Source of the DNA: a virus
Taxonomy: Duplodnaviria; Heunggongvirae; Uroviricota; Caudoviricetes
Length of the DNA: 30,523 nt
Reading direction: 5' to 3' (one strand)
IMG/VR virus record: IMGVR_UViG_2737471824_000004
Location: 1-30,523 of that record
A program made the translations under genes and the position numbers. The notes below the pieces were generated by a model. It did no database searches. It saw only the letters and a program-made list of their open reading frames with translations, and was not told where the DNA came from. Positions 2,233 through 20,568 of the stretch are shown one piece after another. How positions within the stretch are numbered: position 1 is the stretch's first letter; each line of letters opens with the position of its first letter.

Positions 2233-2316
2233 ATTTTTCTCCTTAATTAAGGTTGAGTGAATCCCTGCCATTGCTGGCATATAAGAATGAAACCGTACAT
2301 TTGTGACGTAGCTGCT

Positions 2317-2508
2317 TTAAATACTTGTCGTGACTTCTTTATTATCCTGACGAATAACTTTATCAACCTGATAACAGTTACCTGGAATTTTCTGTTCTTC
2401 TGCAGCAGCCATGCATTCTTTCATGGAGTTGTATATTCCTGCAACTATATCAACCGGTTCACCGGAAACAAGAAAAACAGTCATAACAAGCGCGAATACT
2501 GTATTCAT
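2317..2508 (-). CDS. hypothetical small protein with N-terminal hydrophobic segment (63 aa; sits where YdfD lies in Qin)
   Basis: ORF-track ORF; start ATG shares one base with the upstream gene stop (TGATG); N-terminus VFALVMTVFLV is hydrophobic. Confidence 0.5.
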   Translation of the reverse strand: MNTVFALVMTVFLVSGEPVDIVAGIYNSMKECMAAAEEQKIPGNCYQVDKVIRQDNKEVTTSI

Positions 2509-2693
2509 CAGTGTCTCCAGAAAATACCAAGTCTGAGAAGAGCCATTCTGGAAAGTATGGAATTATCATTGAGAAAATAAGGCTCATATTTCCTCATATT
2601 AATGGCATCTTCAGTAAACTCACGGTTACTGATTTGAACACCAATTTCAAAACAACCTTCAGATGTATTGATGTTTGGTAATAACGTTTCCAT
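2508..2693 (-). CDS. dicB: DicB-like cell-division inhibitor (61 aa)
   Basis: METLLPNINTSEGCFEIGVQISNREFTEDAIN closely resembles my recollection of the E. coli DicB N-terminus (MKTLLPNVNTSEGCFEIGV...); C-terminus diverged. True start is ATG at 2693 with RBS GAGGAAACGATA; the track M at 2711 is TTG. Confidence 0.6.
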   Translation of the reverse strand: METLLPNINTSEGCFEIGVQISNREFTEDAINMRKYEPYFLNDNSILSRMALLRLGIFWRH

Positions 2694-2707
2694 TATCGTT
2701 TCCTCGA

Positions 2708-3262
2708 TCAATGGATATTAAGTAACTGCTCCACGGTCATATTTTTAATTACGTCCCTGTTCACAAGCGTCCATCCCTGTTTCTCCAGATAAAAGCGGAA
2801 GGTTTCCAGGGTACAGACTATTGCTCCATCAGGAACGGTTTCAGTGAATTTGATGTTGCCGTGTTCGTCGAAGTGAACAACCAGAGTACGGCCATCGCCA
2901 GGAATCATCTTGTCAGCGGACGGGGTGTTATTCTGGCGCAGCTCTGCCTCCATGCGGTCAAACTCGGCAATGTAGGCTTCTTTGAACGCGGCGGCTTTTT
3001 TGCCGGTGAACCCCATCACCAAAAAAACGAAGCCGTTTTTGGTGATCTGGTACATTGGGAGCTTGCGTCCTGTTGAGTCGGTGTATTCGCTCGACACAAA
3101 ATTGTGCTCAGTGAATTTTGCTGAACAGTCCAGATTGCGAATTTTATCCAACACTCGTTCGTGGCGTTTACCAAAGAACTCGGCGATCGCAACAGACGTA
3201 GTGACAGCGCGACCATTTTCGATGGTTACATCAGGGTGATAAATGGTAGGGGTAGTAGCCAT
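2708..3262 (-). CDS. Rha-family phage regulatory/antirepressor protein with C-terminal domain shared with the ORF6N protein at 17746..18309
   Basis: Rha motif (VAIAEFFGKRHERVLDKIRNL...YQITKNGFVFLVMGFTGKKAAAFKEAYIAEF). Start chosen at ATG 3262 with GGAGG RBS 8 nt upstream; the in-frame upstream extension to 3670 crosses a terminator and a leader whose paralogue is non-coding. Confidence 0.7.
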   Translation of the reverse strand: MATTPTIYHPDVTIENGRAVTTSVAIAEFFGKRHERVLDKIRNLDCSAKFTEHNFVSSEYTDSTGRKLPMYQITKNGFVFLVMGFTGKKAAAFKEAYIAEFDRMEAELRQNNTPSADKMIPGDGRTLVVHFDEHGNIKFTETVPDGAIVCTLETFRFYLEKQGWTLVNRDVIKNMTVEQLLNIH

Positions 3263-3428
3263 GATGGCAGCCTCCGCGATGAATTTAATTAACTCACCAC
3301 CAGAGGTGCTAATCTCATGGGTGGTGAGACGCACAGGGTTAGCACTACCGGTCATCACGGAACCCGGCCAGCCTTGCGGCTGCCCTGCACGCCTCACCAT
3401 AATGCGAATGTGGCTGTGCTTAACGCAT

Positions 3429-3451
3429 AAAAAAACCGCCTGAGCGCGGTT
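3429..3451 (-). terminator. intrinsic terminator in the Rha leader (stem AACCGC/GCGGTT plus U7 on the minus strand)
   Basis: Hairpin at 3434..3451 followed on the minus strand by a 7-T run (plus-strand A-run 3429..3435). Confidence 0.5.
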
Positions 3452-3511
3452 ATGCGCCGTGATTGACTTCGGGGTGCTAATCCCGGCACCCGTTTTATGA
3501 GGTGCAGGTGA

Positions 3512-3540
3512 ACTATAATTCCACCCGTACTGGTTTTCAA
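3512..3540 (-). promoter_or_regulatory. sigma70-like promoter of the Rha cassette (-35 TTGAAA, 17-nt spacer, -10 TATAGT on the minus strand)
   Basis: Minus-strand hexamers at 3535..3540 and 3512..3517; homologous in position and sequence to the promoter at 17469..17497. Confidence 0.4.
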
Positions 3541-3739
3541 TAGCTACATTCAACATTTTCTCTTGCCTTTCATCACCGAAGTGAACTTTATTGATGCGGT
3601 GCCTGGTGCCTCCAGGTGACGTTAACCAGTTAACAATTAACGCCGGATACAGAGAATCCACCCATAACACTGTTTTTAGTTTTAACTGTTCCGCGTGCGC
3701 TTAGCCGCATTCACCGCATCACAAAATTCACTTTAAAAA

Positions 3740-3792
3740 GGGCGGCAGAGCAGTCACGGAGTAAAACTGATACCGCCAAACGTCACCAGAAA
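3740..3792 (-). ncRNA. dicF: DicF small RNA (53 nt), followed by a T-run at 3735..3739
   Basis: Minus strand reads TTTCTGGTGACGTTTGGCGGTATCAGTTTTACTCCGTGACTGCTCTGCCGCCC then TTTTT, matching my recollection of the 53-nt E. coli DicF including its GGCGG/CCGCC terminator stem. Confidence 0.8.
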
Positions 3793-4127
3793 ATTGATAA
3801 CAGAGGGCGTTGCAGCGGGGTTGTCACTTAAGCGTATGGTCAACCTGACAACCCGGTGTCCTCAACGGGGGAAGGAATAACCCCGCCATACTTACCGCCG
3901 CGCCATTTCGCGGATTGCCACAACCGGAAGCGCACGGTCGACGAAAATTTAACGACAGGCTATCTATGAACCAGCTACCTCGCCGTGCGCTTTCGCGTTA
4001 TGGTCTGACTTTTCAGGGAAATATCCTTTCAGTAAACTGTCAGTGCCGGATGCTCACCCGTGTCCGGCGCACGTACTCCACCTCACCCGTGGAGAACTCC
4101 TTAATCACCAACCCTCAGGAGGGTGAA

Positions 4128-4418
4128 ATGTCGACTGAAAATGATGAAATCATTAACTCCCTGATACGCCAAATTAATAATTTTGATAAAGCATTGCAGC
4201 ATGCTGCGGCGCGTAGTGATATAACTCTTTTAGCAATTTCATTTCTTGCATCTGTTATGGATAAAAATGAAGTCGTACGACAGAGTCTTGTTGATTATAT
4301 CGACTCGCTTCAACCCGGCACTTTCAATCATGAGAGCTTCAATCATGAGAGCTTCAATCATGAGAAAGAGCATGTTAAGTCTGTAATTAATTCTCTTATT
4401 TTGAATCAAAAGAATTAA
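4128..4418 (+). CDS. hypothetical protein (96 aa) with tandem SFNHE repeats; low-GC insert
   Basis: ATG 4128 with strong RBS AGGAGGG 5 nt upstream; low-GC coding sequence; opposite strand to the surrounding leftward operon; 3' end overlaps the convergent gene 4396..4716. Confidence 0.5.
   Translation: MSTENDEIINSLIRQINNFDKALQHAAARSDITLLAISFLASVMDKNEVVRQSLVDYIDSLQPGTFNHESFNHESFNHEKEHVKSVINSLILNQKN
4322..4366 (+). repeat. 15-bp tandem repeat (TTCAATCATGAGAGC x about 3) encoding SFNHE-SFNHE-SFNHE
   Basis: Direct reading of 4321..4370. Confidence 0.8.
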
Positions 4419-4716
4419 TGCTTTTTGTTGCAAAGTAATTTTCAAGGGGCTCTATTCGAATCCCTTTCTTTTTCATTAACAAGCCAAACCCCTTATCAAT
4501 GATGTCCATTAGATCCAGGAAGTATTTTTCATGTAAATCCTGGTTATCAGAGAGCTGCTTCTCTTCGTACAGACCGATAAAGGCACGACGCACGTTACCG
4601 GATATAGTATCGATGGTTTCTTTTTCTACGGTACTCAGGTCAAGAGTCGCCAGTTGGGAACGAACTATATTCGCTGCCATTTCCTGGAATTGCATTGGTA
4701 AATCTTTAAATTCCAT
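4396..4716 (-). CDS. hypothetical protein (106 aa); low-GC insert, convergent with 4128..4418
   Basis: ORF-track ORF; ATG 4716 with GAGG RBS; no family recognised. Confidence 0.55.
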   Translation of the reverse strand: MEFKDLPMQFQEMAANIVRSQLATLDLSTVEKETIDTISGNVRRAFIGLYEEKQLSDNQDLHEKYFLDLMDIIDKGFGLLMKKKGIRIEPLENYFATKSINSFDSK

Positions 4717-4738
4717 TATTAGCCTCGTTGGTTAGCTA

Positions 4739-4957
4739 TTAACGCGGGTATGTAATCATTCTGGCAATGCTTAATGCCGCTGCTTTTTCCAGCCTGGTGA
4801 TATCCTGCTCCAGAGCGGACAGATTTTCAGCCTGCTTAACCCTGGCTTCATTAGCCCATTTCAGATCCTGCGCTGCATTAATTTTCTGGCGCATCCACTC
4901 ATAAAGTTCATCATCGGTATAGTCTGGCGCGATGATGACGGGTTCTCGTTTCTGCAT
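4739..4957 (-). CDS. YdfC-like small protein (72 aa)
   Basis: ORF-track ORF with GAGGA RBS; size and position match YdfC of the Qin dicB operon as I recall it. Confidence 0.5.
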   Translation of the reverse strand: MQKREPVIIAPDYTDDELYEWMRQKINAAQDLKWANEARVKQAENLSALEQDITRLEKAAALSIARMITYPR

Positions 4958-5544: not shown

Positions 5545-5832
5545 TTAGTTCTGCTTAGGGAATTGGCGTCTGGCGTGTACTACACTCACGATCTCAATGC
5601 TTAAAGTGGCTACACGGTAAAGAATTATATAGTTAGGGTGAGCTACAATCTCACGCAAGCCAGGTACTCTGTCGCTTGGTGGGTATAAATACGGGTGTTC
5701 GGATAACGGCAGCACACACCCCCTTAATCGCTGCCATAAGCGTTCTGCCGCATCTATGTCGAAACGAGCAATATAACTAGTTATATCATCCAGGTCGGTA
5801 TCTGCGCTTTCAAGCCATAACACGGGTAACAT
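5545..5832 (-). CDS. type II toxin, ParE/RelE superfamily (95 aa)
   Basis: C-terminal signature ...REIVAHPNYIILYRV...VVHARR typical of ParE/RelE toxins; start ATG 3 nt after the upstream antitoxin stop with RBS ACGGAG inside that gene. Confidence 0.7.
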   Translation of the reverse strand: MLPVLWLESADTDLDDITSYIARFDIDAAERLWQRLRGCVLPLSEHPYLYPPSDRVPGLREIVAHPNYIILYRVATLSIEIVSVVHARRQFPKQN

Positions 5833-5835
5833 TTA

Positions 5836-6024
5836 CTACTTACTCCGTTCCTTGCGCATTTTAGCAAAGCGTTCTGCCATTCTGCGCTCAACCTCGTCAT
5901 GGGGAATTGCTGGGCGCGGATTTGCAAGGCTCGCTGCTACTTTCGCACGCAGCCATTCGTTGTAACTGTTTTCTTGTTCAATGGTTTCGAACTCAGAAAC
6001 CATTGGTGAAAGGGCCGTATTCAT
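5836..6024 (-). CDS. type II antitoxin (ParD/StbD-like, 62 aa) paired with the toxin at 5545..5832
   Basis: ATG 6024 with RBS CGGAGG 6 nt upstream; the longer track frame from 6087 would overlap the repressor gene; small acidic protein directly upstream of a ParE-like toxin. Confidence 0.6.
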   Translation of the reverse strand: MNTALSPMVSEFETIEQENSYNEWLRAKVAASLANPRPAIPHDEVERRMAERFAKMRKERSK

Positions 6025-6053
6025 GGCACACCTCCGTCTGTGTATGGTGGTCA

Positions 6054-6461
6054 TTATGCTCGATGCCCTTTCCGGGCAGCGAGCCATCTTTCAATTGTGC
6101 GCTCCATTAACTCTTTTTTGTCTTTCATCTCCTGAAGCATTTGTCCCTGTTCTTCCTCTGGGAATGCTCCAAATGTCTGAAGTAGCTCTCTTTGCTTCGG
6201 ACCTATTTTCATTGTGTCAGGTACCACAATCTGTTCGTCCTCACTTGGTGGCAACATAAACCAATATGGAGGGAATCCTGTTACTTCAGAAAGTTTATCA
6301 AGATTAGCCATTGATGGGCTTGTGATGCCATGAACCCACTTTTGGACCGATTGTTGGGCAACACCTATTCTGCGGGCTAGTTCTGCTTGCTTAAGCCCTG
6401 TTTTTTCCAGCACCAGTTTTATCCGGTACGTGGTTATTTCAAGAGTGGTCATTCGCTTCAT
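6054..6461 (-). CDS. prophage repressor, DicA/RacR-like (135 aa, N-terminal XRE HTH, no S24 peptidase domain)
   Basis: HTH motif LKQAELARRIGVAQQSVQKW; size and C-terminal pattern resemble DicA as recalled; divergent from the Cro-like gene; leaderless start at the predicted pRM. Confidence 0.75.
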   Translation of the reverse strand: MKRMTTLEITTYRIKLVLEKTGLKQAELARRIGVAQQSVQKWVHGITSPSMANLDKLSEVTGFPPYWFMLPPSEDEQIVVPDTMKIGPKQRELLQTFGAFPEEEQGQMLQEMKDKKELMERTIERWLAARKGHRA

Positions 6462-13010: not shown

Positions 13011-13186
13011 TGCAGCGGGTGCTTGAGGCTATCTGTCTCAGGCATGAACACCAAAAGGCAGATAGAGAAAAGCCCCAGTTAACATTACGCGTCCGGCAAG
13101 ACGCTTAACATTAATCTGAGGCTCAATCTATGAACGGCAAATCTAGGTTAGCCTCTTACGTGCCGAAAGGCAAGGAGAAGCAGGCT

Positions 13187-13342
13187 ATGAAGCAGCAAAA
13201 GGCGATGTTAATCGCCCTGATCGTCATCTGTTTAACCGTCATAGTGACGGCACTGGTAACGAGGAAAGACCTCTGCGAGGTACGAATCCGAACCGGCCAG
13301 ACGGAGGTCGCTGTCTTCACAGCTTACGAACCTGAGGAGTAA
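13187..13342 (+). CDS. hokD: Hok/Gef-family type I toxin (51 aa; HokD/RelF-like)
   Basis: MKQQKAMLIALIVICLTVIVTALVTRKDLCEVRIRTGQTEVAVFTAYEPEE: transmembrane helix plus LCEVR...EVAVF signature; AAGGAG RBS; in-frame upstream extension from 13130 is a mok-like leader frame. Confidence 0.75.
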   Translation: MKQQKAMLIALIVICLTVIVTALVTRKDLCEVRIRTGQTEVAVFTAYEPEE

Positions 13343-17497: not shown

Positions 17498-17560
17498 TCC
17501 TCACGCGTCAGCAAAATCTGGCGTCGGGATTAGGAACCCCGGATAGAGACCGCGACAGAT

Positions 17561-17583
17561 ACACGCCGCGAGCGTGTTTTTTA
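17561..17583 (+). terminator. tR'-like intrinsic terminator (ACACGC-CGCGA-GCGTGT plus T6)
   Basis: Direct reading; about 70 nt downstream of the pR'-like promoter. Confidence 0.5.
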
Positions 17584-17745
17584 TTGTCGTATGCACGCGC
17601 ACATCTGAATTATGGTGGGGCGTATGGGGGAGCTGAAAGGCTCGCCGGTTGGTTTCCCGGTAGTTCCTAACCCTGTACGTCTCACCACCCGATGATTAGG
17701 AACCTGACGGTGGTGATAGTTTAGAAACCACTAGAGGGCGTCATT

Positions 17746-20221: not shown

Positions 20222-20513
20222 ACAACGAATCCTTCTGATCTGCTTTTGCGGGGCTTTTTTGTATCCGCTCCATGCCCGGCGTATAAGCGGAGGTTGGTCA
20301 GTTTTCTAAAAATTGAAATACCTCACAATTCAGCCAGTTAATGGTTGTTTGTCTGGCGAAGAGTTTGTAAATAAAAAAACGCATGGTGAATCCCCCTAAG
20401 CGGCGGGGCGAATCAGCAGTCAGTTCTGGGATAATCGCGGGTTTGTATGCTGATGCCGGACTCACCGGGAGGCACCCGGCACCATGCATCATGGTCATCC
20501 CCTTGTATGATAC

Positions 20514-20568
20514 CCCTCTCCGGAGGGGTATTTTTTGGATAAAAAAGCCCGCGCTGGGAGGCACGGGC
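20514..20568. terminator. back-to-back terminator-like hairpins (plus: CCCCTC-TCCG-GAGGGG plus T6 at 20514..20537; minus: hairpin 20547..20568 with T6 on the minus strand)
   Basis: Direct reading. Confidence 0.4.

Follow-up and report, generated by a model that had tools for sequence, protein, structure and literature searches.

The window analyzed here is a stretch of 30,523 nucleotides, the whole of a Caudoviricetes virus record (IMGVR_UViG_2737471824_000004). Its early region carries, in order, a repressor gene, a PaaA2/ParE pair, ydfA (DUF1391), ydfB, ydfC, a minus-strand gene referred to hereafter as S, a plus-strand gene (A) that converges on S, the small RNA DicF and dicB. A begins with an ATG at 4128 and ends with a stop codon at 4416-4418 (4128..4418, plus strand), and encodes a protein of 96 aa antisense to the operon. 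An AGGAGG ribosome-binding site lies at 4117-4122, 5 nt before the ATG, and Tandem Repeats Finder located a perfect 15-nt tandem repeat of 2.9 copies, encoding SFNHE, at 4323-4365 (plus strand). S (4396..4716, minus strand) encodes 106 aa in the sense of the early operon, and the 3' ends of the two genes overlap by 23 nt on opposite strands (4396-4418). Upstream of S in the operon is ydfC (4739-4957, minus strand); beyond the start of A are a conserved, GC-rich dicF leader delimited by alignment (3792..4113, minus strand) and DicF itself (3740-3791, minus strand; Rfam RF00039, 76.7 bits). The initial annotation had described a plus-strand gene of 96 aa with a strong ribosome-binding site and tandem SFNHE repeats, a minus-strand gene of 106 aa, a 3' overlap of 23 nt and flanks formed by a ydfC-like gene and DicF, and each of these features was found.

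Other elements were mapped in the same prophage. The interval of about 1 kb between DicF and dicB (2508..2711), at 2708-3670, holds isrK (3429-3505, minus strand) and a C4-type antisense RNA (3317-3404, minus strand), both recognized by Rfam, together with an ORF that has Ash and Rha domains. This block is an antirepressor module of the P1/Gifsy type that K-12 Qin does not have; a second isrK/C4 pair is present at 17505-17692 (plus strand). Between ydfA and the repressor lie the ParE toxin (5545..5832, minus strand) and the PaaA2 antitoxin (5836..6087, minus strand), whose ORF as listed overlaps that of the adjoining 135-aa helix-turn-helix repressor (6054..6461). Rfam also placed two RNAs elsewhere in the prophage, at 13017-13192 and 20352-20540: sok, the antitoxin RNA of a hok/sok module, and the small RNA STnc100.

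In K-12 Qin, as the initial annotation had stated, dicF follows ydfC directly. Alignment of the window with Qin (L002) and with a near-identical E. coli prophage (L001) revealed an exact 605-bp indel at the junction of ydfC and the dicF leader, which confirms the insertion proposed in the initial annotation. The indel spans 4114-4718, contains S, A and the ribosome-binding sites of both, and is bordered by flanks that are about 97% identical; in K-12 the junction reads GCTAA followed by GGTTAGTAATTAAGG. The block had been described as low in GC and roughly 0.9 kb long; its base composition is indeed low (38.0% GC) but its length by alignment with K-12 is 605 bp. The GC content of A is 35.1%, compared to 47.9% for ydfC, 54.3% for the dicF leader and 48.6% for the whole window, a contrast (35% versus flanks of 48-54%) typical of acquired genes.

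The frequency of the insertion was determined in a sample of 5426 complete E. coli genomes, with an empty junction counted at a coverage of at least 80%. The ydfC/dicF flanks were present in 4595 genomes and the empty junction in 2695 (about half of the sample). DNA matching the N-terminus of S was found in 1328 genomes and the A gene of the window in 198, where RefSeq annotates it as protein-coding. The presence/absence comparison proposed with the initial annotation thus shows that the block is not ubiquitous. Nearly all of the 198 genomes carry a 253-nt version of the queried stretch with two repeats; the window has three.

Several lines of evidence show that A is a real coding gene under purifying selection, and S is a real coding gene as well. 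Relative to an allele that is 15% diverged (L013), A has 41 nucleotide differences and zero stop codons or frameshifts, with dN of 0.12 and dS of 0.37 (dN/dS ~0.33). The reading frame was intact in all 57 full-length IMG/VR loci that contain A; a 58th is cut off. Full-length alleles encode 86, 91 or 96 aa and all indels come in multiples of 15 nt, such that one SFNHE copy gives 86 aa (276 contigs), two give the common 91-aa form and three give the 96-aa form of the window (3 contigs). When the cassette was subjected to dinucleotide shuffling 2000 times, only two of the shuffled sequences had ORFs of at least 90 aa on both strands. Purifying selection, a conserved ribosome-binding site and in-frame repeat changes together argue that A functions at the level of the protein. 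The proposal that the plus-strand ORF is a gene was therefore upheld by its conserved strong ribosome-binding site, the dN/dS ratio, the in-frame repeat variation and the distant homologues described below.

The closest of these homologues, A92, is 26% identical to A over its full length (BLASTP E = 5e-5; here and below, numbers after A or S give the length of the protein in aa). A profile search widened the family to Salmonella, and in both E. coli and Salmonella the slot is occupied by relatives that are 26-30% identical. A92 and the Salmonella protein A93 are themselves related by a dN/dS of 0.25, and the ratio for their sense-strand partners is 0.16. Close relatives of A were confined to Escherichia, and no homologue of A was detected in the species-representative genomes scanned. 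Homologues of the A96/A92 family were likewise absent from 50,697 phage records, and given this absence the family may be confined to defective prophages.

The A protein is acidic and predicted to be helical, with no confident membrane segment. Its AlphaFold model consists of three helices at low confidence (pLDDT 69) and places the SFNHE repeat in a predicted loop, residues 61-72. Searches for a characterized relative were negative: Pfam matches at E values up to 1 were noise (DUF6376, RanGAP1_C) and did not include SieB, PHROGs gave one weak match (phrog_712, function unknown), and A had no homology to any Pfam, NCBIfam, PADLOC or PDB entry or to a known defence protein. For both A and S, PDB sequence-profile searches found nothing significant and Foldseek against the PDB returned only generic helical bundles (E >0.7). 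When A, S and six proteins of sister cassettes were searched together against Pfam, NCBIfam, PADLOC and PHROGs, they matched only PHROGs of unknown function. The remote-homology search suggested earlier thus yielded distant relatives of A (A92 and Salmonella A93) but no characterized family or fold. The literature that mentions ydfC with dicF does not describe the cassette, and searches returned nothing for the RefSeq accessions and nothing relevant on sieB hotspots.

Two further ideas about A were discarded. Because the frame of A is open upstream into the GC-rich leader (3915-4127, plus strand), gene callers often report a protein of 127-167 aa (P0122, P0125 and the ORF 3915..4418); the extension is an artefact, since in L003 the upstream frame is shifted with respect to the shared ribosome-binding site. 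A was also considered as an immunity-specific antirepressor and rejected, as the same type of A is found beside 135-aa, 214-aa and LexA-like repressors.

S belongs to a phage protein family. It matched PHROG 6937 over its full length (E = 2.9e-69), with residues 1-106 aligned to profile positions 1-106 of 124, and residues 1 to about 55-66 are common to PHROGs 1363, 2151 and 9419; none of the four families has an assigned function. The earlier statement that neither protein belongs to a known family accordingly holds for A, which matches no curated family, but not for S. A collection of 5.8 billion proteins contained 235 relatives of S. A full HMMER scan with its N-terminal 60 residues identified 35 proteins among 1.84 billion representatives, none of them fused to a known domain; in 34 of the 35 the domain starts at residue 1, and the remaining one is a weak internal match in a repetitive protein. 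The C-termini that follow this domain are unrelated to each other, in proteins of up to 208 aa in total. In the window the constant N-terminal domain of about 53 aa (MEFKDLP...NVRRAFIGLY; 4558..4716, minus strand) is common to forms of S with unrelated C-termini. S is acidic with no confident membrane segment, its AlphaFold model has three helices at low confidence (pLDDT 67), and in the scan of species-representative genomes it was found only in Escherichia albertii. S is thus shown to be an operon-sense early gene whose constant N-terminal domain of two helices is joined to exchangeable C-termini, and which can stand alone in its 124-aa form.

The N-terminal domain of S also heads gp25, a 147-aa protein of Stx-converting phages (for example L004, phage PA2, 3001..3444), where the gene is flanked by genes for a DUF2303 protein and a PAPS reductase and no convergent partner is annotated. 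The C-terminus of S106 was compared with that of S133 and with p71, a stand-alone 71-aa Salmonella protein equivalent to the C-terminal domain of S133; homology was rejected, with no BLASTP alignment and an hhalign probability of 0.1%.

Related loci drawn from GenBank phages, public assemblies and IMG/VR showed that the site is a polymorphic slot with defined ends. The left end, GAGGCTAATA-ATGGAATTTAAAGATTTACC, is common to every ydfC-dicF cassette and corresponds to the ribosome-binding site and first ~53 codons of S. The right end, CAT(T)TCACCCTCCTGAG followed by GGTTGGT, is common to the window, L003, L005, L006/L007 and L009/L010, and CAT(T)TCACCCTCCTGAG corresponds to the start codon and ribosome-binding site of the antisense gene, adjoining the dicF leader. 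Read in the direction of the antisense gene, the junction motif CTCAGGAGGGTGAA(A)ATG, which includes AGGAGG, is common to the A96 (window), A92, A73 and A77 cassettes, and a diverged version, ATGGAGGATAAAATG, is found in the A100 (L012) and A69 (L157) cassettes. Besides A, the slot holds at least five antisense genes, and those of ydfC-dicF cassettes start at the conserved ribosome-binding site. S106 or S109 is accompanied by A86, A91 or A96 with an overlap of 23 or 32 nt, S124 by A73 (11 nt), S133 by A92 (41 nt), S135 by A77 (23 nt; prophage PPompW and phage Evi), S122 by A100 (77 nt) and S208 by A69, where the genes abut with an overlap of 0 nt. S124 also occurs with no antisense partner, in L044, L047, L049, L053, L072 and L093, and there the stop codon of S lies directly on the leader.

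Two additional antisense ORFs were observed at comparable places. In some prophages S124 is followed at the usual dicF-region place by a 148-aa antisense ORF (L045, 2954..3400, minus strand) with two hydrophobic segments and no Pfam or PADLOC match. Cronobacter phage phiES15 (L158) has an unannotated 95-aa antisense ORF (2247..2534, minus strand) in a 600-nt 'empty' gap before kil. With an overlap of 30 nt, this ORF converges on a p71-like gene, the first of the early-left genes; the layout matches that of the window, and the phage is inducible.

Comparison with loci that carry S alone indicated how the arrangement in the window arose. Homology between the window and L044 extends to about codon 106 of S and resumes at the leader, and the blastn breakpoints delimit an A-specific segment of 308 nt (4092..4399, approximately) that replaces the last 64 nt (18 codons and the stop) of the 124-aa S gene. 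The S of the window, 18 residues shorter than the 124-aa form of PHROG 6937, is a product of this insertion. The last six codons of A (LNQKN and the stop) are antisense to S-derived sequence (INSFDSK), and past the breakpoint S continues for two further codons of A-derived sequence before its stop. In the cassette with S124 and A73, the stop codon of S is intact and A73 was cleanly inserted behind it as a segment of 247 nt. Since the insertion of A cut into the 3' end of S124 and each frame extends to the first stop codon it meets, the 23-nt overlap is a by-product, and the differing overlaps in sister cassettes (11, 23, 41 and 77 nt) fit an overlap set by the place of insertion. The suggestion that the overlap permits antisense regulation is consequently not supported. 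The antisense relation that matters is that of the whole A gene, which a transcript of the operon must cross to reach dicF and dicB.

On these results the 605-bp block is best explained as a combination of two distinct accessory modules, located where the early-left (dicBF) operon of Qin/Rac-like lambdoid prophages is prone to recombination. A single inserted two-gene unit was rejected: S exists alone, and one body of S (residues 1 to ~95; the first 273 nt 97% identical in DNA) can be accompanied by A96, by the non-homologous A73 or by no partner. We conclude that the S and A modules assort largely independently.

Expression signals of A were sought in the leader and downstream of the gene. 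No sigma-70 promoter upstream of A exceeded the scan threshold; the best promoter-like site on the plus strand (TTTTCA at 4010-4015, a 17-nt spacer and TAAACT at 4033-4038) matches at 8 of 12 positions and sits in leader sequence that empty sites also carry. The terminator scan detected no terminator after A and only a weak terminator-like site at 4762-4779. Beside the cassette the dicF leader contains two adjacent hairpins, at 4043-4072 and 4076-4094. The first was invariant across nine loci, and the second is swapped for other hairpin-forming sequence in L012 and L157; the hairpin block is also present upstream of A93 in a Salmonella prophage (L154), where Rfam recognized no DicF. The hairpins are possibly a processing site, an antitermination element or the 5' UTR of A.

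The position of A is that of sieB, a superinfection-exclusion gene of lambda, P22 and the Rac prophage whose product aborts the lytic growth of superinfecting phages. In lambda, sieB (34482-35036) lies inside the early-left operon on the opposite strand and abuts N (35037-35438), and A likewise converges on S. The order in Rac is racR, ydaG, ydaF (DUF1391), a convergent sieB that overlaps ydaF by 4 nt, KilS RNA and kilR. A is thus placed as sieB is, antisense and between the early genes and a small RNA with a division inhibitor (DicF and dicB here, KilS and kilR in Rac). The likeness is one of position: A shares with the SieB family the antisense convergence on an early gene of the early-left operon, but homology was not found. 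Unlike SieB (162-184 aa), A is an acidic protein of 96 aa that has no confident membrane segment and no similarity to SieB in sequence or fold.

On account of the position it shares with sieB of lambda and Rac, A is expected to be made in the lysogen. Our preferred, though tentative, interpretation of the two modules is that A is a lysogeny-phase accessory gene in the sieB position, most plausibly acting in phage exclusion or host modulation. Judging from the position of sieB, A would be produced while the early promoter is repressed, and in that phase the most plausible role for the protein would be to exclude other phages or to modulate the host. Upon induction, convergent transcription of the operon would pass across the whole of A and shut it off. 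S would be an unrelated early lytic protein.

A also resembles the morons of lambdoid phages, such as HK97 gp15. Like these, it is precisely present or absent between 97%-identical backbones, as defined by the 605-bp and 308-nt segments, its low GC deviates from the surroundings, and it is a lone small gene that brings its own translation signal to a site that accepts many alternative genes. Classic morons have their own promoter and terminator. For A, the scan brought out neither clearly, the best promoter-like site matching at 8 of 12 positions, and the alternative A genes use one shared ribosome-binding site beside a conserved leader, an arrangement more like a fixed expression port than a set of independent insertions. 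S, for its part, shares with polymorphic toxin-immunity loci a constant N-terminus, swappable C-termini and an adjoining small gene that varies. In contrast to such loci, the neighbouring gene points toward S, neither a toxin nor an immunity domain was recognized, S has no secretion or delivery domain, and the partner does not co-vary with the C-terminal domain. The features of type II toxin-antitoxin loci, namely co-directional genes, family homology (Pfam, NCBIfam, PADLOC) and obligate co-occurrence, were all absent. A is therefore of a familiar kind, an uncharacterized moron or sieB-slot gene beside a modular early gene.

We considered whether the proteins S and A instead function as a pair, in the manner of a toxin and an antitoxin or as an exclusion protein and its self-immunity factor. 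In such a pair the proteins would neutralize each other, the variable C-terminus of S would correspond to the type of A, and the lysogen would make one protein and the induced prophage the other. Consistent with this, S106 or S109 adjoins A in 58 of 58 IMG/VR loci with A, and each distinct C-terminus of S (the 133-, 135-, 122- and 208-aa forms) is found with its own type of A. In Salmonella, p71 is convergent with A93 with the same 41-nt overlap as S133 and A92, and both proteins are under purifying selection (dN/dS 0.16 and 0.25, respectively). However, S124 lacks a partner in several loci, one body of S tolerates A96, A73 or no partner, and the homologues A96 and A92 face partners that are not homologous to each other (hhalign probability 0.1%). 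Moreover, p71-like proteins are found in many phages, yet an A92/A96 homologue was found in 0 of 50,697 phage records; the genes are convergent and not co-transcribed, and neither protein falls in a toxin-antitoxin or defence family. We therefore regard a functional pair as unlikely.

A related scheme, which we judge quite unlikely, treats the slot as a dedicated exchange port for a polymorphic two-component system, in which A, drawn from many unrelated families and expressed in the lysogen, would exclude phages or control dicF/dicB, and the C-terminus of S would neutralize A in the induced prophage. Self-immunity of this type would be analogous to P22 sieB/esc, and the p71/A93 locus of Salmonella would be its minimal form.

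It is also conceivable, if improbable, that transcription of A matters and its protein does not, plus-strand antisense RNA running through S, ydfC, ydfB and ydfA and damping the leaky, toxic dicF/dicB operon in the lysogen. The damping could, with similarly low probability, take the form of transcriptional interference or of cleavage of double-stranded RNA. The whole of A and all plus-strand sequence downstream of it are antisense to the operon, no terminator separates the convergent genes other than the weak site at 4762-4779, and the slot accepts unrelated coding sequences as if orientation outweighed sequence. Purifying selection on the protein (dN/dS 0.25-0.33), the conserved strong ribosome-binding site and repeat changes that stay in frame speak against such a role for the transcript, as do the empty site in about half of the genomes and a promoter scan in which nothing exceeded the threshold. 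Finally, that the plus-strand ORF is a chance or decaying ORF on low-GC DNA of largely defective prophages is highly improbable: it would fit the lack of a family match, the absence from 50,697 records of sequenced phages, the lack of a clear promoter in the scan and the modest structure confidence (pLDDT 69), but not a frame intact in 57 of 57 full-length loci, A DNA in 198 complete genomes, 41 differences from the L013 allele without a stop codon or frameshift, indels in multiples of 15 nt, relatives of 26-30% identity in the same slot of E. coli and Salmonella, or the rarity of a 96-aa ORF in shuffles of the AT-rich cassette.

None of these findings overturns the current understanding of lambdoid mosaicism. 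For annotation, our results mean that A is often over-extended upstream and that in at least one sequenced phage (Cronobacter phiES15) a gene at this place has gone unannotated. Provided that A is expressed in lysogens, an unrecognized variable slot beside DicF/DicB would be present in about a quarter of E. coli genomes, and this slot, with at least six unrelated small genes at the sieB position, would be a source of testable candidates for exclusion or host-modulating proteins.
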